Virus record (IMG/VR): IMGVR_UViG_3300033141_002903
Span: 1-51,589 of that record
Direction: 5' to 3' (one strand)
Origin: a virus
Taxonomy: Duplodnaviria > Caudoviricetes
DNA: 51,589 bases
The translations under genes were made by a program, and so were the position numbers. The notes beneath the pieces were generated by a model. That model had not been told where the DNA came from, searched no databases, and worked only from the letters and a program-made list of their open reading frames with translations. This document shows, in pieces, positions 20,556 to 51,589 of this stretch. Within the stretch, counting starts at the first letter, position 1; each line of letters opens with the position of its first letter.

Positions 20556-21245
20556 TTATGGATGGTATTTAACCTCACCCCTATCAACATATAAGGATTC
20601 TCCTGTGCAATGGGGAAATGATTCTGAACTATCTAAATAAATTGGAATTCCTGCATTATTCAATTTGTAGCAAAAATTAACATCACCACCACGTATTTCT
20701 GGACCATCATTTAATATAATCTGCTCAAAATAAGGAAATTTTAATTTATCAAGCACATCAACATTGATGCACATTCCAACAGGTCCAGTTACACCAATTT
20801 TTATTAGCCCATCATTTTTATTTGGTTTTACAAGATTATCTTCTTCCTTAAACCCAATTCCCTTAAGTTCCTTATATTGTGTTTGTTTATATGGTGGTGT
20901 TCTTTGGCTAGTGCAACCAACAACTACAGGAAGATTATAAGAAATGAATTTATTTATGAAATTTGGAGAATAAATATGGTCGTCATCCAACATAACAATA
21001 TAATCAAACCTAAATCCCCTAGCCTCTTTTCCTTTATTTTGGGCTATCAGACAAGCCCTGTTTCTCATATAATTCACATCACAGCTGGAAACATTGATTA
21101 ACTCTATATTATGCTCTTTTCTTGTATTATTTACCAATTCTATTAAACTTAGACTAAAATGTTTAGGAAAATAACCCCTATTACTTATTATTGTAATGAG
21201 AACTTTTTTCTTGTCTTTTTTCTTTTCTGATATTTCAACAGGCAT
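20556..21245 (-). CDS. GT-A fold (GT2-like) glycosyltransferase
   Basis: 'MRNRAC...DYIVMLDDD', 'GGDVNFC'. Confidence 0.75.
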   Translation of the reverse strand: MPVEISEKKKDKKKVLITIISNRGYFPKHFSLSLIELVNNTRKEHNIELINVSSCDVNYMRNRACLIAQNKGKEARGFRFDYIVMLDDDHIYSPNFINKFISYNLPVVVGCTSQRTPPYKQTQYKELKGIGFKEEDNLVKPNKNDGLIKIGVTGPVGMCINVDVLDKLKFPYFEQIILNDGPEIRGGDVNFCYKLNNAGIPIYLDSSESFPHCTGESLYVDRGEVKYHP

Positions 21246-21246
21246 C

Positions 21247-21459
21247 TTATTTGCTTTTTTTTATGTTTGTAGTATTCGGTGATTTTACTTCATAAGTTTT
21301 TTTAGCGTGAGAATTTATCTCTCCATTATACTTTACTTCTATCCCTTTTGAATTTATGAACAATTCTGTTTCATCTCTACATCCATCTTTACTTTTTACT
21401 TTTCTTGTTCTGCTTTTATAAAAGATTGGTCTATGTTTTATTTCTACCGATTTCGCCAT
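21247..21459 (-). CDS. Small hypothetical protein
   Basis: Coupled ORF within the cluster. Confidence 0.45.
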   Translation of the reverse strand: MAKSVEIKHRPIFYKSRTRKVKSKDGCRDETELFINSKGIEVKYNGEINSHAKKTYEVKSPNTTNIKKSK

Positions 21460-22316
21460 TTTACATCAAATGATTGTATTGGTATGTTTTTTGAAATTAT
21501 AAATTGTTTAATTTCTTCCAACATTTTAAGCCTTTTATCCTGAAGATTTTGGTATTCTTCGTTCCAATGAGTCCATAATCTTATGAATTTTTCTTGTGAT
21601 GGTTTTTCTTCTCCCCACGGTTTATTTGAGTATATAATTCCATTCAATATCTTTTCTGTGTTATAATGCGACTTCTCAATGCGAATGAATCTTGCCCTCT
21701 CCCTCATTTCCTCTGGAAGATTATCTTCTTTTTTTGGATGTTCCTGATGATACATTGGAAGATTAATATCAATTAGTCTGCAATTATCAAATAATGCCCT
21801 TTGATATAGGTCGTTATCTACAGCACCCCACAGAATTAAATTTTCATCATATCCACCAACAGAATAAATCCATTTTCTAGAAAATACTTGGATTCCGCCA
21901 TTTGCCTTGGAATTTATCCTTTTTAGGTTATTGTTATCCTCATACCAACCCCATGATTTATTCCATTTACCTATGTCTTTTGCGTTAATCCTTTTAACAT
22001 TGGTGTTTATTATGAATGTTTTTTCTCCAAGAGATTTTAACACACGCTCCATAACCTCTTTTGTTACAATAATATCACAATCAATAGTCATAATATAGTC
22101 CCCATTGCTTTTTTTAATCCCATAATTTAAACCATGGGATTTATTCCATACATTATTCTTATCATACCTTATTATTTTGGCATTATTGACTTTAACTGGT
22201 TTCTTACTACCATAATCTATAACAATAATTTCATCTACAAAATTTTTTATTGCATTGATGCAGTTCTGTATTCTCCTGTTACTTCTATCCCTTACAACAG
22301 TTATTGCTGAAATCAT
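21444..22316 (-). CDS. GT2 glycosyltransferase with a GT7-like C-terminal motif
   Basis: 'IIVIDYGS', 'DYIMTIDCD', 'GGYDENLILWGAVDNDL'. Confidence 0.85.
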   Translation of the reverse strand: MISAITVVRDRSNRRIQNCINAIKNFVDEIIVIDYGSKKPVKVNNAKIIRYDKNNVWNKSHGLNYGIKKSNGDYIMTIDCDIIVTKEVMERVLKSLGEKTFIINTNVKRINAKDIGKWNKSWGWYEDNNNLKRINSKANGGIQVFSRKWIYSVGGYDENLILWGAVDNDLYQRALFDNCRLIDINLPMYHQEHPKKEDNLPEEMRERARFIRIEKSHYNTEKILNGIIYSNKPWGEEKPSQEKFIRLWTHWNEEYQNLQDKRLKMLEEIKQFIISKNIPIQSFDVKWRNR

Positions 22317-22975
22317 TTGTAATTAAGAAATTTTAGTTCAAAATCAAGTGATTCTTCTAATTTTCTAGCCTGTTCTATTGTTAAATATTTTCTGTATTCC
22401 CCAATATTTGGTGTTCCTATATGCATTGCGTGTATGTGGTCGCTTTTGTCATAATGACCAAAATCGTGTTTTTCTCTCATTAGTTTTATTGACTTTTTCT
22501 TATTGTTTTCTAGACTTACTTTTTCCATTACTTCTGCTCTTTTTTTTACATTAATAGGAATAAAGAATTCCATCTCAATTATATCCAATAAATGTTCAAC
22601 ATTATTGAAGAAATCCTCGTATCTTAAAATTATTATTTCTTCATCACGATAATATGTAAGATAAGTGTAAAAAGTCATTAGTCTGTTTTTAACAGAATCA
22701 ACACAACCAAGTAAATCTTTTGTATTTGGTCTATTAAGAAGATTTCCGTTTTTATCATGTTTTCCAAAATATATTCTCCAATGAGAGAATGCTATTTCTC
22801 TAGGGTCTCTTACAACAAGAAAAATTTTATATCCTTCTAAATTTTTTACAAATCGGTGTGTCTGTGGTGGAATTGGTCCTCCTTCTGGAGTAAGTAAGAA
22901 CTCTCTAAATACCTGCCATACTAATGTTCCACCGCTTCGTGGTATCCCGTATAAATGGACCTTTACTTTATTCAT
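22313..22975 (-). CDS. Sulfotransferase
   Basis: PAPS-binding 'GIPRSGGT', 'VVRDPRE', 'LRYEDF'. Confidence 0.85.
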   Translation of the reverse strand: MNKVKVHLYGIPRSGGTLVWQVFREFLLTPEGGPIPPQTHRFVKNLEGYKIFLVVRDPREIAFSHWRIYFGKHDKNGNLLNRPNTKDLLGCVDSVKNRLMTFYTYLTYYRDEEIIILRYEDFFNNVEHLLDIIEMEFFIPINVKKRAEVMEKVSLENNKKKSIKLMREKHDFGHYDKSDHIHAMHIGTPNIGEYRKYLTIEQARKLEESLDFELKFLNYK

Positions 22976-23883
22976 TTTAAAATAATGTCAATAATCTTAT
23001 TTGTGAGTAAATCCCGATAATACTCATATTTTCCATGAGACGTTTCCCGAAATTTTCTTGCATTTTTAATAATCTCATCATATTCTTCTTGTGTTATGTT
23101 CTTTAAATAATTTCCTAATCCATTCAAATCAAATTCTTTTGTTTTTGGATTAAACCATTTTCTTAAATCAATGAAACAATTTGTTGGTATATGGTGTTCT
23201 ATTCTAGAATCACCTAAATAAAGGGTAACCCTGTCTGTAGCAAATCCATCCCAGATTTTTTCGTATAAATAATTTGGATAAATTGTATTTTCCAATGCAA
23301 GAACAAAATCGCATTTGGATTCAATTATTTTCTTTTGTTTATCCTCTCTCCAATTAGGAACTTTAGTAATCTGACCATGCCATCCCCTACCAATCATAAT
23401 GCTTTCTTGGAATCTTTTTTCTAAATATTCTCCTATCAATCTTCTCAAATAAGTTATGTTTATTCCACCACAAGAATCTGGAATTTTATCATAGAATCCA
23501 ATCATTCCAGCATAAAAAACACCCCGAGACATAATAGTGGTATCTTTTCTGGTAATGAAGGGGAATGGGTCTGGTCTTGTTGGATAATATTGTGGGCAGT
23601 CATCAGGAGTAAATGGAATTTGATTATCTTTTTTTATATCAGCCCAATGACACACAACAGTATGAAATTTATCAAAATTTCTATAACACCATACACGATG
23701 GTCTGCAAGTGGTGGCTCTACTGCAATATAGATTGTTTTGTTCATATGCTCTGGAAAACTGCAAGTTGATTGCGATATTAGAAAATCTGCTTCATGCGGA
23801 TTATTTACCAATTCTATTTCTGGATTATTTTTTATGAGTTTCTCGTTCAAATTAGTTCTTGTTGTTATAAAGACCTTTCTCAT
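22972..23883 (-). CDS. GT10 (alpha-1,3-fucosyltransferase-like) glycosyltransferase
   Basis: 'VEPP' and the GT10 motif 'FVLALENTIYPNYLYEKIWDGF...LYLG'. Confidence 0.85.
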   Translation of the reverse strand: MRKVFITTRTNLNEKLIKNNPEIELVNNPHEADFLISQSTCSFPEHMNKTIYIAVEPPLADHRVWCYRNFDKFHTVVCHWADIKKDNQIPFTPDDCPQYYPTRPDPFPFITRKDTTIMSRGVFYAGMIGFYDKIPDSCGGINITYLRRLIGEYLEKRFQESIMIGRGWHGQITKVPNWREDKQKKIIESKCDFVLALENTIYPNYLYEKIWDGFATDRVTLYLGDSRIEHHIPTNCFIDLRKWFNPKTKEFDLNGLGNYLKNITQEEYDEIIKNARKFRETSHGKYEYYRDLLTNKIIDIILK

Positions 23884-24383
23884 TTTTTTGCTATTGCTAT
23901 TATCTCTGATTTGTTTGTATTTTTTAATTTAACTTTTTTTAATTGTAATATTTCAAATCCAACATGTCCTAGAAAAAGTTTTAGGGTTGTTAGTGTGAAT
24001 AAAGTCTTATGGCACATCATACTATCCCCTAAATCACGATAATCACAGCATTCACCATCTGGTACAGATATTCCTATTTTTCCACCAACCTTCAATATCC
24101 TTCTCCATTCCTTCAATACCCCAATAGTGTTATTTGTATGTTCAAGAACATGACTAGCGACTATAAAATCTAAAGAATTATCTTTTATGGGTATGTTGTG
24201 CATATCACAAAGATAATCTGGATTATAGTCTGGATTTATGTCAAGTGTTTTAGCATTATCAGAAATTGGTCTATCCGCACTACCAATATCTATTCCATTT
24301 CCAACACATATTTCTTTTAATATTTTCCTTCCTTCTTCATCAAAAGTCCTATTTTTAAATGATATTGCCATTTTTATTATCAC
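23880..24383 (-). CDS. SAM-dependent methyltransferase (type 11)
   Basis: 'GIDIGS', 'DFIVASHVLEH', 'RILKVGG'. Confidence 0.85.
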   Translation of the reverse strand: MIIKMAISFKNRTFDEEGRKILKEICVGNGIDIGSADRPISDNAKTLDINPDYNPDYLCDMHNIPIKDNSLDFIVASHVLEHTNNTIGVLKEWRRILKVGGKIGISVPDGECCDYRDLGDSMMCHKTLFTLTTLKLFLGHVGFEILQLKKVKLKNTNKSEIIAIAKK

Positions 24384-24750
24384 TTCCTTTATTTATTTCA
24401 TCTACAATTTTTCTCAGTTTTTCATCATATTTGTTTTTGTCCGATGCTGGAACACCCCATTCAATTATTATACTGTCTTCTTTAGCCACAAACATATGTG
24501 GTGTATTTGGTGGTATCAATGAATGCTCGCCTTTAACATAACCAATAGAGTTAATTTTATGACCTTCTTTCCATATAAATTCACCAAATCCTTCAATTAT
24601 ACAAAAATCCTCTGCAATAGAATGAATGCAACCACCAATAGCCTTGCCTTTATTTAATTTAATTATGGTAAATTCCTTATTATTCTTAAGTAGATTTTCT
24701 ATCAAATAGATAGTTCTTCTTTCATCTGAATGTATCTTTTTAATTTCCAT
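24355..24750 (-). CDS. Cupin (sugar isomerase/epimerase-like)
   Basis: 'DERR', 'GGCIH...E', 'IPPNTPH'. Confidence 0.7.
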   Translation of the reverse strand: MEIKKIHSDERRTIYLIENLLKNNKEFTIIKLNKGKAIGGCIHSIAEDFCIIEGFGEFIWKEGHKINSIGYVKGEHSLIPPNTPHMFVAKEDSIIIEWGVPASDKNKYDEKLRKIVDEINKGSDNKNGNII

Positions 24751-25750
24751 CGTAAAATTCTTTTATTTTATTTATTACTTCATTTTGGTCATTTTTAGAT
24801 AATCCACCACCATTAGGCAACCAGATACAAGTCTTATAATAAAATTTTGCATTTGGAAGCCCCTTAAATGGTTTCCAAGGAATCCTTACTTCTACGTTAT
24901 TCTTTTTCAAAAATTCAATTAATTCGTTTCTTTTTTCTTTTGGAAAGAATTCAACCCATAAGGGTACTTCTCCATCATGAAATTCTATAAATGAGCCATA
25001 ACCTTGTAATTCTTTTTTATATGTAAGATATTGTTCTATATGTAATTTCTTTCTTTCTTCAAGTTTTTCTAATTGACCAAGAACAATAGAAGCAAGAATA
25101 TCATTAAATTTAAAATTAAACCCAGAAGTACCATTCTCTTCTTTCTTGTTCCTTCCAAAGTCTTTTAGTCTTCTTATCATGTATGCATATAAATCATTAT
25201 CAGTAGCACAAAATCCCCCTTGCCCACAACTTATCAATTTGTTTGCTTGAAGTGAATAGCAACCAACCAATCCATTATTTACTTTTGAACCAAGACATCC
25301 AGCATTATCGCATATAACTGTTGTGATTGTTGGAAAAACGTCCCAAGCATTTCTACCAAGAAGATTAACAGGAATTATAATCCTTGCTGGCGGAAAAATA
25401 CCTCTAACTAAACAATATCTTTTTTGAGAAACATCAAATATATTTGGATTAAGACCAGCAAGTTCAACAGCATTTTTAGTGGAAACAAACGTTAAGTCTG
25501 GGATAATTACTTCTCCAGAATTATACTCTCTTATTCTTTTATCTGCTTCAATAGCAAGATAAAGAGCAGCAGTGCAACTAGTAGTCATAATAACATGTTT
25601 AGTTCCAACAATTTTAGCAAGTTTTTCTTCTAGTTCTTTTGTTTTTGGACCTTCACTAACATAACCTGATTCCAATACTTTTGTTACTAATTCTTTTTCC
25701 TTCTCTCCAAATACTGGGGTATTCCATTTAATTACCATTTTGTTAGCCAA
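24740..25750 (-). CDS. DegT/DnrJ/EryC1/StrS aminotransferase (perosamine synthase-like)
   Basis: 'GPKTKELE', 'SCTAAL', 'SLQANKLISCGQGG' (PLP lysine), 'GFNFK'. Confidence 0.9.
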   Translation of the reverse strand: MANKMVIKWNTPVFGEKEKELVTKVLESGYVSEGPKTKELEEKLAKIVGTKHVIMTTSCTAALYLAIEADKRIREYNSGEVIIPDLTFVSTKNAVELAGLNPNIFDVSQKRYCLVRGIFPPARIIIPVNLLGRNAWDVFPTITTVICDNAGCLGSKVNNGLVGCYSLQANKLISCGQGGFCATDNDLYAYMIRRLKDFGRNKKEENGTSGFNFKFNDILASIVLGQLEKLEERKKLHIEQYLTYKKELQGYGSFIEFHDGEVPLWVEFFPKEKRNELIEFLKKNNVEVRIPWKPFKGLPNAKFYYKTCIWLPNGGGLSKNDQNEVINKIKEFYDGN

Positions 25751-25760
25751 ATTATTTTGT

Positions 25761-27788
25761 TCATTTCATCTTCTCCTTTGCTTCTTCAATGGTTAAACCA
25801 GCAATTTCTTTTAAATCGTGTTCTAGCATTTCTTTGATTATTTCTTTATAAGTGTATTTTGGCTCCCATCCAAGAGTATTTCTAATTTTAGTTGAGTCCC
25901 CTAGCAATGCTGGAACTTCTGCAGGTCTAAAATATTTCTCGCTTACTTCAACATATTTTTTCCAGTCAAGACCAATCATATCAAAAGCATCTTTTAAGAA
26001 TTCTCTAATAGAATGTGTTTCATTTGTGCTAACAACAAAATCATCTGGTTTATCGTGTGTAATAATCAGATACATCGCCTTAATGTAGTCTAAACTATGA
26101 CCCCAATCCCTTGTAGCATTCAAATTGCCCAAAATCAATTTATCTTGTTTTCCAGCAACTATCCTTGCTATACCTCTTGTTATTTTCCTTGTAACAAAAT
26201 TAACTGTTCTTCTTGGAGAATTATGGACATGAATATTTCCAATACCCGCAATAAACTCCCCACTTTCAGTTTCTAAATCATAAAACCACCCCTTATAATT
26301 GGACATGTCAATAGTTTTTGTTACCTCTGCAAAAGGTTTTGATAAATGAGATTTTATTCCTTTTGGGCTATTTAGGTTAATACAATATATAATTGAACCT
26401 GTTTTTCCTGTTGTTGTATAAAAAGTCTTTCTTTGGGTTGGTAATAAAATATCTGTTAAATACCACAATCCCTGTGCTAATGTTGCAGAATTAGTTTTAA
26501 AAGCCTTAAACTCATAAACACATTTATCTTTTTTTAAGCCATCACAATTATTGTAACCTCTTAAAAAGGACATTTGGGCTTCTTTATTAGCATTTAAAAT
26601 TCTCTTTGGAATTCTTTTATATCTTTCAGAAGTGTACAAATCTAATTCTTTTGTCCAATTATTTCCAGTAAAATATATTTGTTTAACAGTATTACCTTTC
26701 TTAAATCCACTTGATGTATCTTGCTCGTAAGTATGAGTTCCAACAATTTTATTCCACAATTCTAAAAATCTCTTTCTAATTTTTTCATCATTTTTTGTAA
26801 ATTTACCCATATTTCCTTTTTTATTTATATACCCATCAGCAACTAACATCCCTATTAATTCTGCTTCCTCATTAGAAACAAAATCAGAAACATTTTTAAT
26901 TATATTCAGATTAACTAATTCAAATCTATCTCCTTTAGAAATTTCTCTTGTTTTTTTTTCTTCTCCTTCCATAAATGCGACATGGTCACCAGTAGCCATA
27001 TATCCCCCGCATCTTCCAGAAATGAATTTTGGGTCTTTATTGTTCTCTAAATCATGTGGATAGCCTGAAGCATATTTAACCTTAACCCACCCTTTTTTAC
27101 CCAAAATTTCCAAATCTGATATTTCTTTGTGTTGATATTTTTTATTAGATTTATCTATAAATGTTAAAACATCTGTAAGAGGTTTAATATCAAATTTATT
27201 TCCTTCTTTTACAAAAATAGGCATAAAATCTGCCATTGTCTCATGATTAAAACAAATAGAATTACAAGCAAATATCCCATAAGCATTCCTGTAAAGTTTA
27301 ACCAGATGATACGCACCAAGTTTTGCTATTCCATAAGGGCTTACTGGTAGCATTTTAGTATCTTCTTTTTGTGGTGGGGGGCTAATTCCAAACATTTCAC
27401 TAGAACTACATTGTAAAAATCTTGTCTTAGGAGAGAAGTTTTTAATTGCTTCAAGTATTCTCAAAACACCAAGAAGATTATAATTTAAAGTAGATTCTGG
27501 AGTTTTAAAACTAATACTAACGTGGCTCATAGCAGAAGTGTTGATAAAATAATCTGGTTTATGTTTTTTTATTAATTCATTGATATTACAAGCATCAGAA
27601 AGGTCAAAATACTCCATTTTAAAGTTCTGGTTTTCATCTTCTAATGAGCAAAGCAATTCATATCTTTCAGAATTTGGACAAGCATTTCTCCTAATAAGAC
27701 CAATTACTTTTTCACCCCTATTTAGCAGAAATTCTATTAGATTACTTCCATCCATTCCTGTTGCACCAGAAATCATCCATAAACTCAT
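25761..27788 (-). CDS. gmd: GDP-mannose 4,6-dehydratase containing an intein
   Basis: 'GATGMDG', 'AMSHV', 'SSSEMFG', 'YGIAK', FNHE|SPRR split by an insert, 'RDWGH', 'RPAEV'. Confidence 0.93.
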   Translation of the reverse strand: MSLWMISGATGMDGSNLIEFLLNRGEKVIGLIRRNACPNSERYELLCSLEDENQNFKMEYFDLSDACNINELIKKHKPDYFINTSAMSHVSISFKTPESTLNYNLLGVLRILEAIKNFSPKTRFLQCSSSEMFGISPPPQKEDTKMLPVSPYGIAKLGAYHLVKLYRNAYGIFACNSICFNHETMADFMPIFVKEGNKFDIKPLTDVLTFIDKSNKKYQHKEISDLEILGKKGWVKVKYASGYPHDLENNKDPKFISGRCGGYMATGDHVAFMEGEEKKTREISKGDRFELVNLNIIKNVSDFVSNEEAELIGMLVADGYINKKGNMGKFTKNDEKIRKRFLELWNKIVGTHTYEQDTSSGFKKGNTVKQIYFTGNNWTKELDLYTSERYKRIPKRILNANKEAQMSFLRGYNNCDGLKKDKCVYEFKAFKTNSATLAQGLWYLTDILLPTQRKTFYTTTGKTGSIIYCINLNSPKGIKSHLSKPFAEVTKTIDMSNYKGWFYDLETESGEFIAGIGNIHVHNSPRRTVNFVTRKITRGIARIVAGKQDKLILGNLNATRDWGHSLDYIKAMYLIITHDKPDDFVVSTNETHSIREFLKDAFDMIGLDWKKYVEVSEKYFRPAEVPALLGDSTKIRNTLGWEPKYTYKEIIKEMLEHDLKEIAGLTIEEAKEKMK
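26220..27239 (-). mobile_element. LAGLIDADG intein (340 aa) in gmd, starting with Thr
   Basis: Insert TMADF...VHN between NHE and SPRR; block B 'ATGDH'; 'LIGMLVADG' and 'FLRGYNNCDG'; block F 'FYDLET'. Confidence 0.9.
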
Positions 27789-27839
27789 TTTTTACTATCT
27801 TTTCATTATTTTTAAATCTTTACTATAATTTGAAAGTGA

Positions 27840-28424
27840 TTATTTTTCACAAGAGATATTCAAACTTATTAATTCTCCTTCTATTTTGGCATGAGAGTGG
27901 TCATCATATTTTCCCCATTCAACTTCAGAATGCTTCCATGGTTCTATTCTTTTAAACCCAATAAACCTAAGCAAATCCCCAAGTCTAGCATAATCATAAA
28001 CTGTTTTATGATAAATTATTTTTTTATTTGATTCCATTCTCCCATATAGTGGTCCAAGAAATTTATGTAATGGAACGCCCTTTAAATAAAGTTCAGAAAT
28101 TTTCTTAAAATCTGGAACAGAAAGATAAATTTTCCCACCTTCTTTCAATGCATATTTCCAAAATAGAAGCAATCGAATAACTTCTCTTTCATCAAAATAT
28201 TCCAAGAAATGACTAGCATATATTAAATCAACTGTATTAGTTTTAATATTAGTAAGATAAATATCGTCTGAATGAATGTGATTAAATTTGGCAATATCAA
28301 CATTATACCACCCCTTCCAATTTCTTTTTCCACAACCCATGTGTATTTTCATTTTTCTCATTCTCTTTGATATATTTATATCATCTAATCTAATTATCTT
28401 GTGTGTTTTTTTGATTTTTGTCAT
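27840..28424 (-). CDS. SAM-dependent methyltransferase
   Basis: 'KIHMGCG..GWYNVD', 'IYASHFLEY', 'LKEGG..LSVPD'; the true start may be downstream. Confidence 0.85.
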   Translation of the reverse strand: MTKIKKTHKIIRLDDINISKRMRKMKIHMGCGKRNWKGWYNVDIAKFNHIHSDDIYLTNIKTNTVDLIYASHFLEYFDEREVIRLLLFWKYALKEGGKIYLSVPDFKKISELYLKGVPLHKFLGPLYGRMESNKKIIYHKTVYDYARLGDLLRFIGFKRIEPWKHSEVEWGKYDDHSHAKIEGELISLNISCEK

Positions 28425-28433
28425 GTTAGTTTA

Positions 28434-28504
28434 TTGGTCTGCGTGGAATTGAACCACGACTAAAGGGTTATGAGCCCAGTGTGCTACCTTTACACTACAG
28501 ACCA
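28434..28504 (-). tRNA. tRNA-Met(CAT), initiator-like, no encoded CCA
   Basis: TGGTCTG/CAGACCA acceptor stem; GTGT/GCAC D stem; CTCATAA anticodon loop with GGG/CCC; CGTGG-TTCAATT-CCACG T arm. Confidence 0.85.
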
Positions 28505-28528
28505 TTTCTTGTTTCATTTTCTAAAAAT

Positions 28529-28644
28529 GTCAGCGTGAGTATCCTCTCCAAACAGGCATACGCTATTGTAATTTTCTTCCCCTGTGGAGATTCGTGTCTC
28601 CAGATAAACCCCCAATAGCAAAGATTTATCCTTTTTTCGCTGAC
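28529..28644 (-). ncRNA. Putative structured RNA immediately upstream of the tRNA
   Basis: Nested stems GUCAGCG/CGCUGAC, GCUAUUG/CAAUAGC, UGGAGA/UCUCCA, GUAU/AUAC. Confidence 0.4.
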
Positions 28645-28815
28645 TATTTGGTACATCTTGGTATATTGAGGTACATTGCTAATTTAATTCGTTTTCTCTA
28701 ACTTTTTTGTCCGAAATCATCTGAAGTGTGTAGTTTTTGAAAATGTTAAGCATATTCTATTAACTTCCAAAAAAGATTATCCTCCTTTATTTTACATTTC
28801 TCTGGATGTTCTTTT

Positions 28816-29097
28816 TCATCTAACTCTTTCTGAACATCCTTTCTTGAATATAACTTTTTTGGGTATCTTATTATTTTCATTTTCATTTTCTTTCCATACT
28901 TGTTCAAAAGAAACATCTTCTCCTTTTCCTTTTCTAAAAAATGTTTCAGCTACCCGCCACAAAACTGCATCTGAAGACATTATTGGTTGTTGTTTTGCAA
29001 GACTAATATCTTTAGAACATTTTCTACACAAACATCCTTTTGAACAACCCATAATTCCTCCTGTTATTTTTTGTTGGCATAATTTACAATTTGTCAT
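28816..29097 (-). CDS. Cys-rich (Zn-finger-like) hypothetical protein
   Basis: CKLC...CLCRKC; GGGAG before MTNC. Confidence 0.6.
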   Translation of the reverse strand: MTNCKLCQQKITGGIMGCSKGCLCRKCSKDISLAKQQPIMSSDAVLWRVAETFFRKGKGEDVSFEQVWKENENENNKIPKKVIFKKGCSERVR

Positions 29098-29260
29098 TAG
29101 TTTCTCCCAACTTTGGAGCAAAATCCAAAATTTCGTTTAATATTGGGATTAAGGAGAGTTTTTACAGAGTAAAAATTCGGGCAGTCGTTAGACTGCTCTT
29201 TAATCCATATTAAACTCTCCGTAGGAAAACCCGAAGGGTTTAGTTCCGTCCCAAATCGTT

Positions 29261-29524
29261 TCATATTAATCGCCTATTTACTTTAATTTTGTCCATAATC
29301 TTTAGATTTTTTCCAGTTTCATAAGGTATAACAAATGATTCATCAACACCAAAATTGGAAACAGTAATTCTTAAACTAATGGGGAGATGTTTTCCTCCCA
29401 CAAAAATTTGGGTTTGTTCAACATTTATCCCAGTTATTACATTTTCTGTTTCAAATTCCAGTTTCTCATTTGTTCTATTGAAAAATCTTTTCTCTTCTTT
29501 TTGGACACTGACTTTTTTGCTCAT
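29261..29524 (-). CDS. Hypothetical protein looped out of junction 1
   Basis: AGGAGG SD; enclosed by the 29242-29257/29562-29577 stem. Confidence 0.7.
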   Translation of the reverse strand: MSKKVSVQKEEKRFFNRTNEKLEFETENVITGINVEQTQIFVGGKHLPISLRITVSNFGVDESFVIPYETGKNLKIMDKIKVNRRLI

Positions 29525-29698
29525 TTTAAACCTCCTGAGTTTAGCTGAACCCCGCCCACAAGATTTGGGACGGAATTGAGTTTAATGTATGCGGATAAGT
29601 TCTCCGTAAGGAAAAAATCCGCAGGATTTTTAGTTTTATGAGCGAAGCGAATAAAATTGAATTTATCCGCTATTATGTTCCCTGCATTAGCAGGTTGA

Positions 29699-29848
29699 TT
29701 AATCGGCATCATCATCTTTACCTTCTATTTTTAACCAATTCTTAGCATTCTCTTTATCAAATATATCTTCAAACCCTTGATTATTCCTTATCTGATTTTT
29801 TAAATCTTGTATCTCAAATTCATTTTCTGGTTCTTTCCACATTTTCAT
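29699..29848 (-). CDS. 49-aa acidic protein looped out of junction 3, missed by the ORF track
   Basis: AAGGAGGT SD; MKMWKEPENEFEIQDLK...DDDAD*; the stop codon lies inside the stem. Confidence 0.65.
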   Translation of the reverse strand: MKMWKEPENEFEIQDLKNQIRNNQGFEDIFDKENAKNWLKIEGKDDDAD

Positions 29849-30021
29849 TACCTCCTTATAGCCGATTAATCAAAGTTTTCCGTCAGGAAAATTGAACATA
29901 ATATCTGCGATTATGGAAAGTTTGTCGTTAAACAAATTTGGGGAGTTCGTTAGAACTCCTCTATAATCGCTATTAATCGCCCCGTAGGGCGTTGCGTAGC
30001 AACGAGTAAAGGAGAGTGCGG

Positions 30022-30342
30022 TCATTCTTCCCCCCTACATTTTTTTAAATGGGCGTAAAGTTTTGGAGCAGTTTCACAATCTCTTTCTTCATCATATAGT
30101 TTCATTAAAGTATCCCATTCTTCTGCAATTCCTTTCCAAATAGGATATTTCTTTGATAAATCAATTATTAAATCTCTGACTTTATGTTTATGATATTCTA
30201 AACAATCAAATAATAAATGAATACATCTCTGAAAGTCAGATGGGTCTCTTGGAATTGCAGGTCTTTCTTTTTCAATACCTAAGATAAATGAAACTATTGT
30301 TAAACTGCTTTCTCCATAATCAGACCATTTAATTTTTTCCAT
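30022..30342 (-). CDS. Phage-type hypothetical protein looped out of junction 4
   Basis: 'GESSLTI...PRDPSDFQRC..LL...W' pattern; its SD (AAAGGAG) lies within the closing stem. Confidence 0.75.
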   Translation of the reverse strand: MEKIKWSDYGESSLTIVSFILGIEKERPAIPRDPSDFQRCIHLLFDCLEYHKHKVRDLIIDLSKKYPIWKGIAEEWDTLMKLYDEERDCETAPKLYAHLKKCRGEE

Positions 30343-30420
30343 TTTACAAGCACTCTCCTTTATTGCGATTAATACCCTTTAATCGAACTTTCCACATGAA
30401 GTCTTGGTTAAGTTTATTTA

Positions 30421-30573
30421 TCATTTTTTATTTAATTTAATTTTACTTAATCTAAGTTTCATTTTTATATAGCATCCAGCAGGACTATTATCATAATACA
30501 TTCCTCTTGTTTTATTGCATGTGTTTGAGTTTGCATCATAATTCTCACAAGTTTTCCAATATTTGCATTTCAT
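30421..30573 (-). CDS. Small Cys-rich protein
   Basis: MKCKYWKTC..., coupled by ATGA to the upstream gene. Confidence 0.55.
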   Translation of the reverse strand: MKCKYWKTCENYDANSNTCNKTRGMYYDNSPAGCYIKMKLRLSKIKLNKK

Positions 30574-35198: not shown

Positions 35199-35421
35199 AG
35201 AATAGTTACTATTCTTAATAATTAAATAGGAGAAAATTGAAAATGAAAAAAGTAGATTTGGATTTAGAGTTTGAAAGGTGGAAACAAGACAACGAAGAAC
35301 ACCTTAGAGAGAAGTTTTTGGAAATCCATAACTTTCAAGAATATCTGGAAGAAGCGTGGAGAGAATACCAGAACGAAAATGGATTAATTGATAAATCCAA
35401 TATTTAAGGTTACTTATTAAG

Positions 35422-35455
35422 GGGTAGTTATAAAATTATAATAATGTAACTACCC
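35422..35455. promoter_or_regulatory. Palindromic operator-like site
   Basis: GGGTAGTTA-N16-TAACTACCC in AT-rich intergenic DNA. Confidence 0.5.
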
Positions 35456-35643
35456 AATAGTTTAAAGATAAATATATAAATACTAAATGTTTTAAAAAAT
35501 TAAGATGGAACTTAAAAAAAGAGAAGAAAAGGAAATAAGGAAAAAGTGGGAAAAATTATCAGATGGTGAAAAATGCAGGTTTAATGGATATAAGGATTTT
35601 GTATCTGTTGAACTATTAAGGAGGAAATTGGATACAGAATAAA

Positions 35644-35913
35644 ATGGGATTTTCAACAATAGGAATAAAACCAGAAACAAAGAAAAAACTTAATGAATTT
35701 AAGGACTATTTAAAGGGAGAAATCAAGATAAGAAGTGATGATGATTTAATAAATTATCTGATTAAAAGTAACCTAAAATATCTTGAAATGGATTATAATA
35801 AGAAGAAAATTAAGTGGGAGAGAGAATATTTGGAATTGTGCAGGAAAAATAAACCCAAAATGTCATTTGAAGAATTTAAACAGAAAAAAATAACAGCAGA
35901 ATTAAAATGTTAA
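35644..35913 (+). CDS. RHH/antitoxin-like DNA-binding protein
   Basis: 'STIGIKPETKKKL...SDDDLINYLI' resembles archaeal RHH proteins. Confidence 0.55.
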   Translation: MGFSTIGIKPETKKKLNEFKDYLKGEIKIRSDDDLINYLIKSNLKYLEMDYNKKKIKWEREYLELCRKNKPKMSFEEFKQKKITAELKC

Positions 35914-36104
35914 TTGATGAGTTGAATTTAAAAGACGAATTAAAGGAGTTTATTCGTAAAGAATTTGGTGAGGTTGAAAGTCTTAAAATTATCAAGAATA
36001 CAAAGGGATTTAATTGGGAATTTAAATTGGTTGGGAAAGTTGAAGAGCAAATAAAGAGAATAATCAAAATAAACGAGGAGTTAGAAACTATCTTGAGATG
36101 TTGA
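35907..36104 (+). CDS. Hypothetical protein
   Basis: Coupled ORF. Confidence 0.55.
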   Translation: MLIDELNLKDELKEFIRKEFGEVESLKIIKNTKGFNWEFKLVGKVEEQIKRIIKINEELETILRC

Positions 36105-36227
36105 AATGAACAAAGAAATTAAGGTAAGTTTTGAACAGATTAAAAGGAAATGCAAGACGATTAAAGATTTAAGGGATTTATACTCTAATATAGAGAAAAT
36201 GAGACAGGTGAAAGGAGGGGTTAAAAA

Positions 36228-36659
36228 ATGAGTGCTTTTTTAATGAGTTTTCAAAGTTTAAGCAATCTTACAAATTGGTTTTATTTTGAAAATGACACAC
36301 ACGGAACTTTTAAAGGTTGTAAAAGAGAAATTTTTAAATTATTTCCAGAATTTGAGAAAGCAAAGTTTAAAGATAATTGGAATAAAGTTTTAGCAGAAGA
36401 ACTTTATAAATTAAATTGTTATTCTTTAAACCAAAGATACGGAGATGATTTAAAGAGTTTTCCAGAATTTGAACATAAAGAACCCGAAAAAATAGATATT
36501 TTTCAGTGTTTAAAATCTGTTCAGTGTTGGCTTTATCAAAGTTGCGAGGGAGACGCAGACACAAAACCACTTTATAAGATGATGCGAAGAATTGAGAAGG
36601 TTCTTTTAAATGCGATAGTAAATAGTTTAGAAGAATATAAAATCGCAAAGTGGGAATAA
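36228..36659 (+). CDS. Phage-type hypothetical protein
   Basis: AAGGAGG SD; 'LN..SLNQRYGD...LKSVQCWLYQSCEG'. Confidence 0.7.
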   Translation: MSAFLMSFQSLSNLTNWFYFENDTHGTFKGCKREIFKLFPEFEKAKFKDNWNKVLAEELYKLNCYSLNQRYGDDLKSFPEFEHKEPEKIDIFQCLKSVQCWLYQSCEGDADTKPLYKMMRRIEKVLLNAIVNSLEEYKIAKWE

Positions 36660-50492: not shown

Positions 50493-50718
50493 TAGTGGTT
50501 GTGCTTATGGTAAGGTTACAAGAACTATTGTTGAAAATATGGTTAATGAATTCAAGGAGTTTAAAACAGACATTAAATCAGAATTCATTACATTGAGAAA
50601 AACCAATGAAGATTTATATAATCATTTATCAAATCGCTTACCACCATGGGCATCAATATTATTTGCTCTAGCAAGCAGTCTCATAACAGGTTTAGCAATA
50701 TACCTTGTTTCAAAATGA
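50479..50718 (+). CDS. Coiled coil plus C-terminal TM protein
   Basis: 'RLPPWASILFALASSLITGLAIYL'. Confidence 0.6.
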   Translation: MSKSNSGCAYGKVTRTIVENMVNEFKEFKTDIKSEFITLRKTNEDLYNHLSNRLPPWASILFALASSLITGLAIYLVSK

Positions 50719-51589
50719 AATACATAGTTTTATTATCTTTTATAGTAATGCTTACAGGATTGGTAGTTGCAACAGACTTCACACCACAAGGAAATATCAA
50801 TTTAAGAGATTATTACAATATAACTGGAGCACAATATGTTAATGCTACAATTTACTATGGTAATGGAAGTCAACTAACAGGAGTAATAGGAAATGCAAAT
50901 AGTTCTGATTATTGGGATGGTCTAGATACTTATAATTCAACCCAAATGGAAAATAATGGAGGAATATTGAGTATTGTTATCTCTTGGTTTGAAAGCAAAT
51001 TTGATAGTCTCTTTAGTGGAAAAACAACAGATGATTTGACAGAAGGTTCAACTAACCTATATGATAATCAAAGTTGGAATGAATCACACGCCAATACCTT
51101 ATACATTCTTCAATCAAGCGAGTCAAATCTAAATGTTAATTCATCTAATTATTGGGACAACTTAAACACTCCAGCAGATATCCTCGGAAGTCAAATAAAT
51201 AATGACCTAAATTGGATAAATGCGACTTATGGGAATGCAACTTATATTTTACAGGCTGATGAATCAAATCTAAATGTCAATTCATCTGATTTCTGGGATG
51301 GTTTAAATTCTCCGAGCGATATTTATATTGGAAATTTAACAGATGATAATACATATGTAAGAGTTGATGGAGATAATATGACAGGTAATTTAGATAATAT
51401 GACAGGTAATTTAACATTGGCAAATGACCCAAGTGATTTATTTCAAGCAGCAACAAAAGGTTATGTAGATATGGCTGTTGCTTCTCTTGGCTCAAGATAT
51501 TACATGATTAATGATTCTTCTGGTATTGCTGATTATAAATTAACACAAACTACTGCATCTTCTGGAGCAGAGCAATCATTTAATAAATC
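50715..51589 (+). CDS. 5' part of a ~634-aa fibre/surface protein that wraps across the origin into 29..1144
   Basis: ATG at 50715 (MKYIVLLSFIVMLTGLVVA, signal-peptide-like); no stop before the end; in frame with the ATG at 51504 (= position 29); internal repeats such as LNVNSSxxWD. Confidence 0.85.
   Translation, partial: MKYIVLLSFIVMLTGLVVATDFTPQGNINLRDYYNITGAQYVNATIYYGNGSQLTGVIGNANSSDYWDGLDTYNSTQMENNGGILSIVISWFESKFDSLFSGKTTDDLTEGSTNLYDNQSWNESHANTLYILQSSESNLNVNSSNYWDNLNTPADILGSQINNDLNWINATYGNATYILQADESNLNVNSSDFWDGLNSPSDIYIGNLTDDNTYVRVDGDNMTGNLDNMTGNLTLANDPSDLFQAATKGYVDMAVASLGSRYYMINDSSGIADYKLTQTTASSGAEQSFNK
51476..51589. repeat. Terminal direct repeat, right copy
   Basis: Identical to 1-114; an ORF reads through the junction in frame. 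Confidence 0.97.

Follow-up and report, generated by a model that had tools for sequence, protein, structure and literature searches.

The DNA considered here (the window) is the entire 51,589-bp contig of IMG/VR virus record IMGVR_UViG_3300033141_002903, from a low-GC (about 30%) tailed phage with genes for a large terminase, a portal, a major head protein, a tape-measure-like protein and baseplate proteins. Within a block of minus-strand genes that extends from about 14 to 32.2 kb lies an array of small genes, flanked – in the leftward sense – by zinc-finger-like small open reading frames (ORFs) upstream and by tRNA-Met (28434–28504) and a sugar-modification cluster downstream. When the plus strand of 29130–30400, that is, the strand antisense to these genes, is folded without constraints, its minimum-free-energy (MFE) structure resolves between 29146 and 30374 into an unbroken chain of six modules, in the order three-way junction (3WJ), four-way junction (4WJ), 4WJ, 4WJ, 3WJ and 4WJ (Table 1). 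All four 4WJs are linkerless, with helix directly abutting helix, and three of them hold a small minus-strand gene (87, 49 and 106 aa, respectively) inside one arm.

An earlier note on this DNA, made from the letters alone, had described a junction core common to the modules, and the unconstrained fold reproduces it. In every window 4WJ, the outer stem closes with a C–G pair (29217/29578, 29602/29659, 29680/29894 and 29980/30365), the first arm is a mini-hairpin of 3, 3, 5 or 3 bp (at 29218–29226, 29603–29612, 29681–29694 and 29981–29989) and the last arm begins A–T, G·T, T–A, with AGT starting at 29242, 29632, 29874 and 30005 and ATT ending at 29577, 29658, 29893 and 30364. The two 3WJs likewise carry AGT/ATT by the junction, their first hairpin reading (G/A)AGT...ATT(C/T) in both.

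On the plus strand, the three short modules fold far below their shuffled counterparts (z = −5.7 to −6.6; none of 200 shuffles as good). Near-linkerless junctions were scanned for across the genome in 450-nt windows, a size that hides the two longest modules; 12 were found on the plus strand, four of them within the 1.2 kb of the array, and 3 on the minus strand, none of them there. Perfect inverted repeats of at least 11 nt are not enriched as such (34 genome-wide versus 32 ± 5 by chance); seven reach 13–14 nt, of which the three that contain GC bracket ORFs of the array and the other four are A+T-rich.

Table 1. Modules, cargo genes and bridge ORFs of the array (window coordinates)
Feature	Position	Strand	Details
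Orphan module, 3′ half	29118–29143	+	Arm 3′ strand ending ATT, then outer 3′ strand of TATTAAACGA address class
3WJ-A	29146–29206	+	Outer stem 29146–29155/29197–29206; MFE fold
3WJ-A, hairpin 1	29156–29178	+	Starts G–C, A–T, G·T, T–A; followed by GG linker
3WJ-A, hairpin 2	29181–29196	+	GTTA loop
4WJ-1	29207–29588	+	Outer stem 29207–29217/29578–29588; mini-hairpin 29218–29226 (GTA loop); hairpin 29227–29241 (GAA loop)
4WJ-1, cargo arm	29242–29257/29562–29577	+	Starts A–T, G·T, T–A; encloses gene
4WJ-1, cargo gene (87 aa)	29261–29524	−	AGGAGG ribosome-binding site; no family match
4WJ-2 (cargo-less)	29591–29670	+	Outer stem 29591–29602/29659–29670; mini-hairpin 29603–29612 (GTAA loop); hairpin (GCA loop)
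4WJ-2, last arm	29632–29639/29651–29658	+	Capped by GCGAAGC mini-hairpin
4WJ-3	29671–29903	+	Outer stem 29671–29680/29894–29903; hairpin 29681–29694
4WJ-3, arm 2	29695–29707/29861–29873	+	Encloses cargo
4WJ-3, arm 3	29874–29893	+	Hairpin, AGT...ATT, GTCA loop
4WJ-3, cargo gene (49 aa)	29699–29848	−	AAGGAGG ribosome-binding site
3WJ-B	29907–29970	+	Outer stem 29907–29917/29960–29970; orthologue in L001 with compensatory hairpin changes
3WJ-B, hairpin 1	29918–29939	+	Starts A-A-G·T; followed by GG linker
3WJ-B, hairpin 2	29942–29959	+	GTTA loop
4WJ-4	29971–30374	+	Outer stem 29971–29980/30365–30374; mini-hairpin 29981–29989 (GTA); hairpin 29990–30004 (GTA); orthologue in L001
4WJ-4, cargo arm	30005–30019/30350–30364	+	Encloses 106-aa gene
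4WJ-4, cargo gene (106 aa)	30022–30342	−	PHROG_1229; metagenome relatives at 45–78% identity
Bridge ORF (55 codons)	29097–29264	−	Through 4WJ-1 hairpins and 3WJ-A; ATGA with 87-aa gene stop; TAATG with next gene start
Bridge ORF (64 codons)	29521–29715	−	Through 4WJ-3 5′ part, all of 4WJ-2 and 4WJ-1 3′ strands; ATGA with 87-aa gene start
Bridge ORF (51 codons)	29870–30025	−	Through 4WJ-4 hairpins, 3WJ-B and 4WJ-3 3′ part; ATGA with 106-aa gene stop
Bridge ORF (26 codons)	30344–30424	−	ATGA with 50-aa gene stop; ends 2 nt before 106-aa gene start

The modules belong to a family. Starting from the 106-aa protein, 19 metagenome relatives yielded an 18-sequence alignment, with which 55 loci were fetched; the same architecture, with 3WJs and gene-bearing 4WJs in alternation, is found in five further phage contigs (L001, L003, L004, L005 and L093). 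A scan of the first 24 loci, restricted to the strand antisense to the gene, placed near-linkerless junctions in the closest relatives (four each in L001, L004 and L005, two in L006 and one in L003), with single, probably unrelated matches in L022 and L024 and none in 17 loci. A stricter descriptor – outer stem and arm with a combined length of 20 bp or more, AGT/ATT required – gave 12 matches on the gene-antisense strand of the 55 loci versus none on the opposite one; its matches within the window were 5 on the plus strand (three modules, one of them found twice, and a likely chance match at 35316–36350) and 3 on the minus strand, all of them hairpin-less. L093 came from a motif scan of IMG/VR for TATTA followed by any five bases and the commonest mini-hairpin, which matched 110 stretches, 3 of them with a complementary address (see below) downstream; L093 alone proved a true carrier, holding four modules, and the rest were taken for chance. 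Among named phages, a blastn search with the array found nothing in 50,697 records. Of sequencing runs, one DNA run, containing 5% of the sampled words, and no RNA run was listed; contigs from the DNA run covered parts of the stretch only, with no joints seen.

In its canonical form, a 4WJ module consists of TATTA plus five variable bases (the 'address'), a mini-hairpin (often with a 3-bp stem and a GTA loop), a second hairpin, a gene-enclosing arm that begins A–T, G·T, T–A and a complementary outer strand ending in TAATA; the two ends of the module pair with each other over 25–27 bp. A one-hairpin variant with a CTTG linker, the address TATTAAACGA and A–T closure occurs in L004, L005 and L093, where it represents one of the four modules. 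The window itself has a half-module of this address and arm design (29118–29143), situated upstream, in gene sense, of a 101-aa ORF (28816–29121); no 5′ partner of it was seen. Gene orientation relative to the hairpins is identical in 13 of 13 cargo-bearing modules, which speaks against invertible segments.

Compensatory changes occur in every helix of the relatives' modules. Across 14 4WJ modules, outer-stem positions 1–5 show two to five Watson–Crick pair types each, positions 6–10 being conserved, and arm positions 4–8 are equally variable yet complementary (again two to five pair types each); there are zero unpaired cells in either set. For the 3WJs, a covariance model (R1) built from two sequences matched 20 distinct sites from eight sources, all scoring best on the gene-antisense strand, and only two in the whole 51.6-kb genome: 3WJ-A, with 47.1 bits (plus strand), and 3WJ-B, with 93.4 bits on the plus versus 25.8 on the minus strand. 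In the 13 best R1 matches, 96.9% of cells are paired, compared with 73.3% after shuffling and 37–58% with the partners slid; 24 of 26 pairs show compensatory changes, and the observed covariation was reached by 0 of 500 shuffles. The earlier note had called the G·T wobble invariant, a claim that free variation among homologues would have undone. In searches allowing any isolated mismatch it is constant, being kept in 15 of 15 4WJ-type modules among the matches listed and in 13 of 13 3WJs, while the neighbouring pairs covary freely.

The non-Watson–Crick pairs of the family reveal a pronounced asymmetry between the strands: on the gene-antisense strand there are 36 G·T or T·G pairs (17 in the 15 4WJ-type modules among the matches listed and 19 in the 13 3WJs) versus 0 A·C, the other mismatches in accepted modules amounting to two C·T at stem ends and one A·A. 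In the sense of the mRNA, each of these wobbles is an A·C mismatch, and the count of G·U pairs is zero. The plus strand is also the more stable one in 3 of 3 RNA folds and 5 of 5 DNA folds, and the modular architecture emerges from unconstrained folding of this strand only. Both in the window and in relatives, the loops are mostly G-N-A or G-N-N-A closed by C–G (cGNAg type), which, as described in PMC3201870 and PMC13037366, give very stable DNA hairpins; according to the accounts in PMC4496689 and PMC5449611, loops of this type serve on single-stranded DNA (ssDNA) in phage N4 early promoters and in Streptomyces telomere overhangs, respectively. In several 3WJs, the second hairpin is made up of consecutive 2-bp mini-hairpins of the GCGNAGC kind, an arrangement that makes sense as DNA rather than RNA. 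From the G·T/A·C asymmetry, the stability of the plus strand, the DNA-stable loop types and the GCGNAGC mini-hairpins, we infer that the folded species is the template strand, as DNA.

Each of the three small cargo genes of the window has a good ribosome-binding site, and neither the 87-aa nor the 49-aa product could be placed in a protein family. The 106-aa protein belongs to PHROG_1229, a family with no assigned function, and has 24 invariant residues, including a C-x-H-x4-C cluster; its confident six-helix model (pLDDT 90.1) has no fold match in the PDB at E ≤ 0.001 among the 81 listed. No close relatives of the 106-aa and 87-aa proteins were found in IMG/VR. The cargo of the related modules is made up mostly of orphan DNA methyltransferases, five of them N6/N4 enzymes and one a C5 enzyme; a YopX protein and several proteins without assignment complete the set. 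Some leaders are shared too: a near-identical one, with an A-rich ribosome-binding site and an ATG at its end, heads unrelated genes, namely the 101-aa ORF of the window (29085–29125, minus strand) and the C5 methylase of L001 (1385–1425, plus strand), and another leader motif, just inside the arm, is common to three methylase cassettes of L004.

On the gene strand, the modules lie within reading frames. Bridge ORFs span them from gene to gene (Table 1), the gene–bridge joins comprising four ATGA overlaps, one TAATG and three cases of abutment within about 20 nt, and the 51-codon bridge is kept in L001 (72.5% over 51 aa). In relatives, the methylase ORFs themselves extend across the modules as far as the next start or ribosome-binding site. 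Four of the methyltransferase ORFs (L001 1421–2200 and 2182–3093; L004 1078–1956 and 3767–4726) continue stop-less for some 60 codons after the catalytic domain, crossing the arm, both hairpins, the outer stem and the next 3WJ and ending at or near the start or ribosome-binding site of the next ORF. An alternative genetic code was considered as a cause of the read-through ORFs and rejected, the large genes being intact under table 11. Ribosomes thus appear to run through every module on the gene strand, which argues for one polycistronic, translationally coupled message; because they read through the modules via the bridge and methylase ORFs, it is unlikely that the design serves a lasting fold of the sense RNA.

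Unrelated genes turn up at the same address. The address TATTATGTTC goes with the 49-aa gene in the window, a C5 methylase in L001 and an N6/N4 methylase in L005, and the address TATTAAACTC with the 87-aa gene in the window and two methylases in L004. The alignment of the window with L001 (79%) is limited to 3WJ-B and 4WJ-4, and L005 and L006 are 94.7% identical over the 106-aa cassette only, with breaks at the start of the arm, in the 4WJ core, and at the border between outer stem and hairpin 1 of the next 3WJ. In one 216-nt contig from sequencing run X1, 3WJ-B and the first hairpin of 4WJ-4 have other neighbours, namely a different module on the left and a different second hairpin and arm; the breaks fall within the outer stem and between the first and second hairpins. 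The earlier note had proposed mapping breakpoints relative to the AGT/ATT arm: homology breaks at helix boundaries, at no single fixed position. As some recombinants (L005) have lost outer-stem pairing, the exchange of cassettes seems to be ongoing.

The reading we prefer, to which we would give somewhat less than an even chance, is that the signature marks strand-specific cassette boundaries that fold in ssDNA and whose junction core is read by a protein or by a stalling polymerase. The modules would delimit accessory-gene cassettes in the early leftward operon of an uncultured clade of low-GC tailed phages, and the template strand would fold while single-stranded, for example as lagging-strand template or as a resected recombination intermediate. 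The ends of a cassette would then pair through the 10-bp address stem, with its conserved TATTA and its five variable bases, and through a 15–16-bp arm, and two mini-hairpins would complete the linkerless 4WJ, with the gene looped out and 3WJs standing between cassettes. The A–T/G·T/T–A triplet and the C–G closure might together form a strand-specific mark, either read by a junction-binding or junction-cutting protein or serving as a site of polymerase stalling and template switching; cassettes would be swapped, lost and gained at helix boundaries, and the address bases would hold each cassette's own ends in register. A bolder version, about which we are somewhat more doubtful, would see in the array an integrase-independent, integron-like cassette system on folded ssDNA, in which all accessory genes, and the anti-restriction DNA methyltransferases in particular, are mobile 'capsules' that close into a Holliday-junction-like 4WJ under a five-base address code; here, the G·T would direct strand and exchange point for a junction-specific enzyme or a stalled polymerase, and the wobble asymmetry and the bridge ORFs would have evolved to spare the mRNA.

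Several points weigh against such a reading or limit the observation itself. Scans of 57 window ORFs against Pfam and/or PHROGs gave no integrase, transposase, HUH enzyme, resolvase, or DNA or RNA polymerase (ORFs below about 55 aa and some others lie outside the scan). The fold needs the template strand to be single-stranded across a whole gene, up to 1.4 kb, and dsDNA (double-stranded DNA) is what tailed phages inject. The breakpoints are scattered rather than placed at one fixed site, which argues against a single site-specific cut, and ordinary homologous recombination at conserved segments would give the same exchange without any folding. The C–G closure is not universal in relatives, being present in 12 of 14 modules; the other two, both of the one-hairpin CTTG variant, close with A–T. 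The module searches tolerated G·T, the 14-module search imposed AGT/ATT, and only one 4WJ and one 3WJ parse were mismatch-agnostic; one L004 candidate contained C·A and was excluded as hairpin-less. The 3WJ covariation alignment was fitted to model R1, and the module sequences are related by descent, so that the counts are not of independent events. Over the region as a whole, finally, the MFE is equal on both strands (−330.2 kcal/mol on the plus and −330.8 kcal/mol on the minus strand).

Among known systems, integron attC arrays come close in that promoter-less, same-oriented cassettes stand in tandem with a structured element between them, recognition depends on fold rather than sequence, and non-canonical positions set the choice of strand. 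The recombinogenic fold of attC is formed by the strand complementary to the coding strand, and it is on this strand that the modules have 36 G·T and 0 A·C. By definition, however, attC consists of one imperfect hairpin that has R and L boxes as well as extrahelical bases. Some 3WJ outer stems (e.g. in L004 and L005) fit what we take to be the R-box consensus, R-box-like words being present in only some of the outer stems. The modules differ further in that no IntI-type recombinase was found in the scanned ORFs, a G·T wobble takes the place of extrahelical bases, the element between cassettes is a fully paired 3WJ, the gene is also enclosed by its own pairing ends in a 4WJ, and the array belongs to a lytic-type tailed phage. 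The ends of IS200/IS605 elements and of their gene-less derivatives, likewise strand-specific ssDNA hairpin signals with non-canonical pairs that guide an enzyme, have their hairpins in subterminal position, do not pair mutually and need the Y1 transposase TnpA; the ends of the modules pair with each other, and the ORF scan gave no HUH match. The earlier note had likened the invariant wobble to protein or nuclease recognition in these two classes. The logic of a strand-specific, folded ssDNA fits, with a one-stranded wobble, cGNAg loops and breaks at helix boundaries, but the modules fall under the definition of neither class and a partner protein was not found among the 57 ORFs.

The PeSL elements of T4-type phages offer a further parallel: as described in PMC2839356 and PMC4122927, these short conserved intergenic stem-loop motifs bracket variable accessory ORFs and serve as exchange points for sequences with no other relationship, but each is a simple promoter plus terminator hairpin, read as a patch of dsDNA homology. 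The modules, too, behave as exchange points, with unrelated ORFs at the same address and homology breaks; unlike PeSL, they have multi-helix junctions, long-range pairing round the gene, strand asymmetry and variable address pairs. No promoter was recognised in them: a scan for sigma-70-type sites, of limited force if the host promoter type differs, gave 12 sites versus 26.9 expected, none assigned to a module, and two terminator-like matches, one of them in 3WJ-A.

Could the structure act in the mRNA after all? Long-range stems that loop each cistron might direct processing, stabilise the message or gate translation, with the bridge ORFs opening the next start, and there are models for this in rRNA-flanking stems, in ORF-bearing 23S rRNA intervening sequences – where, as here, a gene stands between inverted repeats that close a long stem – and in the RNase III sites of T7. 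Each cistron has the inverted repeats exactly at its flanks, an arm contains the ribosome-binding site of the 106-aa gene, the continuous chain of overlapping ORFs suggests translational coupling, and the minus strand itself folds well above shuffles (z = −6.0 to −6.7). Yet RNase III and intervening-sequence stems fold in sense RNA, whereas the wobble pattern of the modules places the fold on the antisense strand: 36 of 36 wobbles become A·C in the mRNA and none is G·U there, although G·U is nearly neutral in RNA. The minus strand is less stable in 8 of 8 comparisons and loses the modular architecture when folded, ribosomes translate through the modules, and the U-N-C and U-N-N-C loops of the mRNA are, to our knowledge, not a stable class. 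We therefore consider a device in the sense mRNA improbable.

Signals for ssDNA replication or protection, to be likened to plasmid ssi and sso signals, would also fit the strand asymmetry and the loop types; the modules would then be priming or primosome-loading sites or nuclease-resistant folds of 3′ tails, and cassette exchange a side effect. Multi-junction folds with G-N-A loops closely match what PMC5449611 describes for the 3′ overhangs of Streptomyces telomeres, multi-branch ssDNA structures ('rabbit ears' and 'clover leaves') that are protein-bound there and whose loops, it is stated, withstand single-strand nucleases and are bound by the priming protein. In that account, the telomere folds are non-coding terminal structures of about 180 nt with a part in protein-primed end patching, whereas the modules are internal and carry genes. 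Such signals would have to tolerate arm genes of up to 1.4 kb, all of them would sit in a single 1.2-kb stretch of a 51.6-kb genome that assembles as a circle and has no primase, terminal protein or polymerase among the ORFs scanned, and the variable address pairs would be left without a reason. This explanation, too, seems to us unlikely.

Less probable still are template-strand hairpins acting as promoters or regulators, like the promoters of the N4 virion RNA polymerase or Frpo, the single-stranded promoters of anti-restriction genes in plasmid leading regions. The N4 promoters, as portrayed in PMC4496689, are small template-strand hairpins of early genes, functional as DNA, with 3-nt loops that a sheared G:A closes; the GTA, GAA and GCA loops of the plus strand, C–G closed, are of this type and also lie on the template strand. 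Moreover, the cargo of relatives consists of DNA methyltransferases, such as are also present in plasmid leading regions (PMC11541004 and PMC7736820). The same description of N4, however, has three isolated hairpins of 5–7 bp upstream of genes and an injected polymerase of 3500 aa, as against dozens of hairpins built into 3WJs and 4WJs; no RNA polymerase, whether N4-like or of another phage type, was found among the 57 ORFs, and the product of the largest ORF (1750 aa) matches only the lectin-like Laminin_G_3. Long-range stems cannot extrude from duplex DNA, the distance from hairpins to start codons is inconstant, the overlapping ORF chain points to a single polycistronic message, and sigma-70-type sites are fewer than in shuffles (12 versus 26.9, for a consensus that may not be the host's).

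A long, structured plus-strand transcript that regulates or silences the early cassette genes would be antisense to them, could use G·U pairs normally and would fold very stably as RNA, but we regard it as very improbable, with no promoter-like site upstream on the plus strand in the sigma-70-type scan, no Rfam match, GTTA and GTCA tetraloops that are not GNRA, and whole antisense genes to be carried as loops. In Rfam, only tRNA-Met passes the gathering score in the window, and between 28400 and 30800 nothing else exceeds 22.5 bits at E ≤ 10. Cloverleaves of tRNA-like or tmRNA-like kind were likewise discarded, as ARAGORN and Rfam give only tRNA-Met and the junctions have neither linkers nor T/D-loop features; a hammerhead-type ribozyme core was sought by eye and not seen.

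Whatever its function, this structured element, covarying and strand-specific, is well supported as a family and falls into no catalogued class; it is directly testable with short oligonucleotides even if that function differs from the one proposed here. If cassette boundaries that fold in ssDNA are indeed what the modules are, gene capsules would be an apparently undescribed way of organising swappable genes – we found no description of gene-enclosing junction modules in phages in the literature searched, supplementary files lying outside that search – and a new viral way to package and trade accessory genes. They would represent the second case, after integrons, of cassettes defined by folded ssDNA, here integrase-free and with the gene inside the fold, and would explain the shuffling of anti-restriction methylases among uncultured phages. 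They would also supply linkerless three- and four-way DNA junctions that are natural, programmable by sequence and equipped with an address code, and an instance of one sequence under two constraints, DNA folding on one strand and RNA translatability on the other.

Some further features of the phage genome deserve mention. An ORF open at its 3′ end (50646–51587, plus strand) runs in frame into one that is open at its 5′ end from base 2 (50646–51589 plus 1–1144); because of this continuity, the contig looks like a complete circular assembly, with a gene of about 695 aa spanning the joint. The sugar-modification cluster (20556–28424, minus strand) is an unusual phage-borne operon of glycosyltransferases, a sulfotransferase, a DegT-type aminotransferase and methyltransferases, and related methyltransferases adjoin the array in L093. 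The GDP-mannose 4,6-dehydratase gene (25761–27788, minus strand) matches Pfam GDP_Man_Dehyd in two stretches. It is split by a segment of about 330 aa that contains a LAGLIDADG-like domain and most likely represents an intein. Between tRNA-Met and the 56- and 101-aa ORFs (28505–28815) lie some 300 nt without a convincing ORF, where Rfam matches are weak and sub-threshold. Finally, a perfect 14-nt inverted repeat (44699–44712/44871–44884), devoid of the junction design of the array, flanks 158 nt between the terminase and portal genes.

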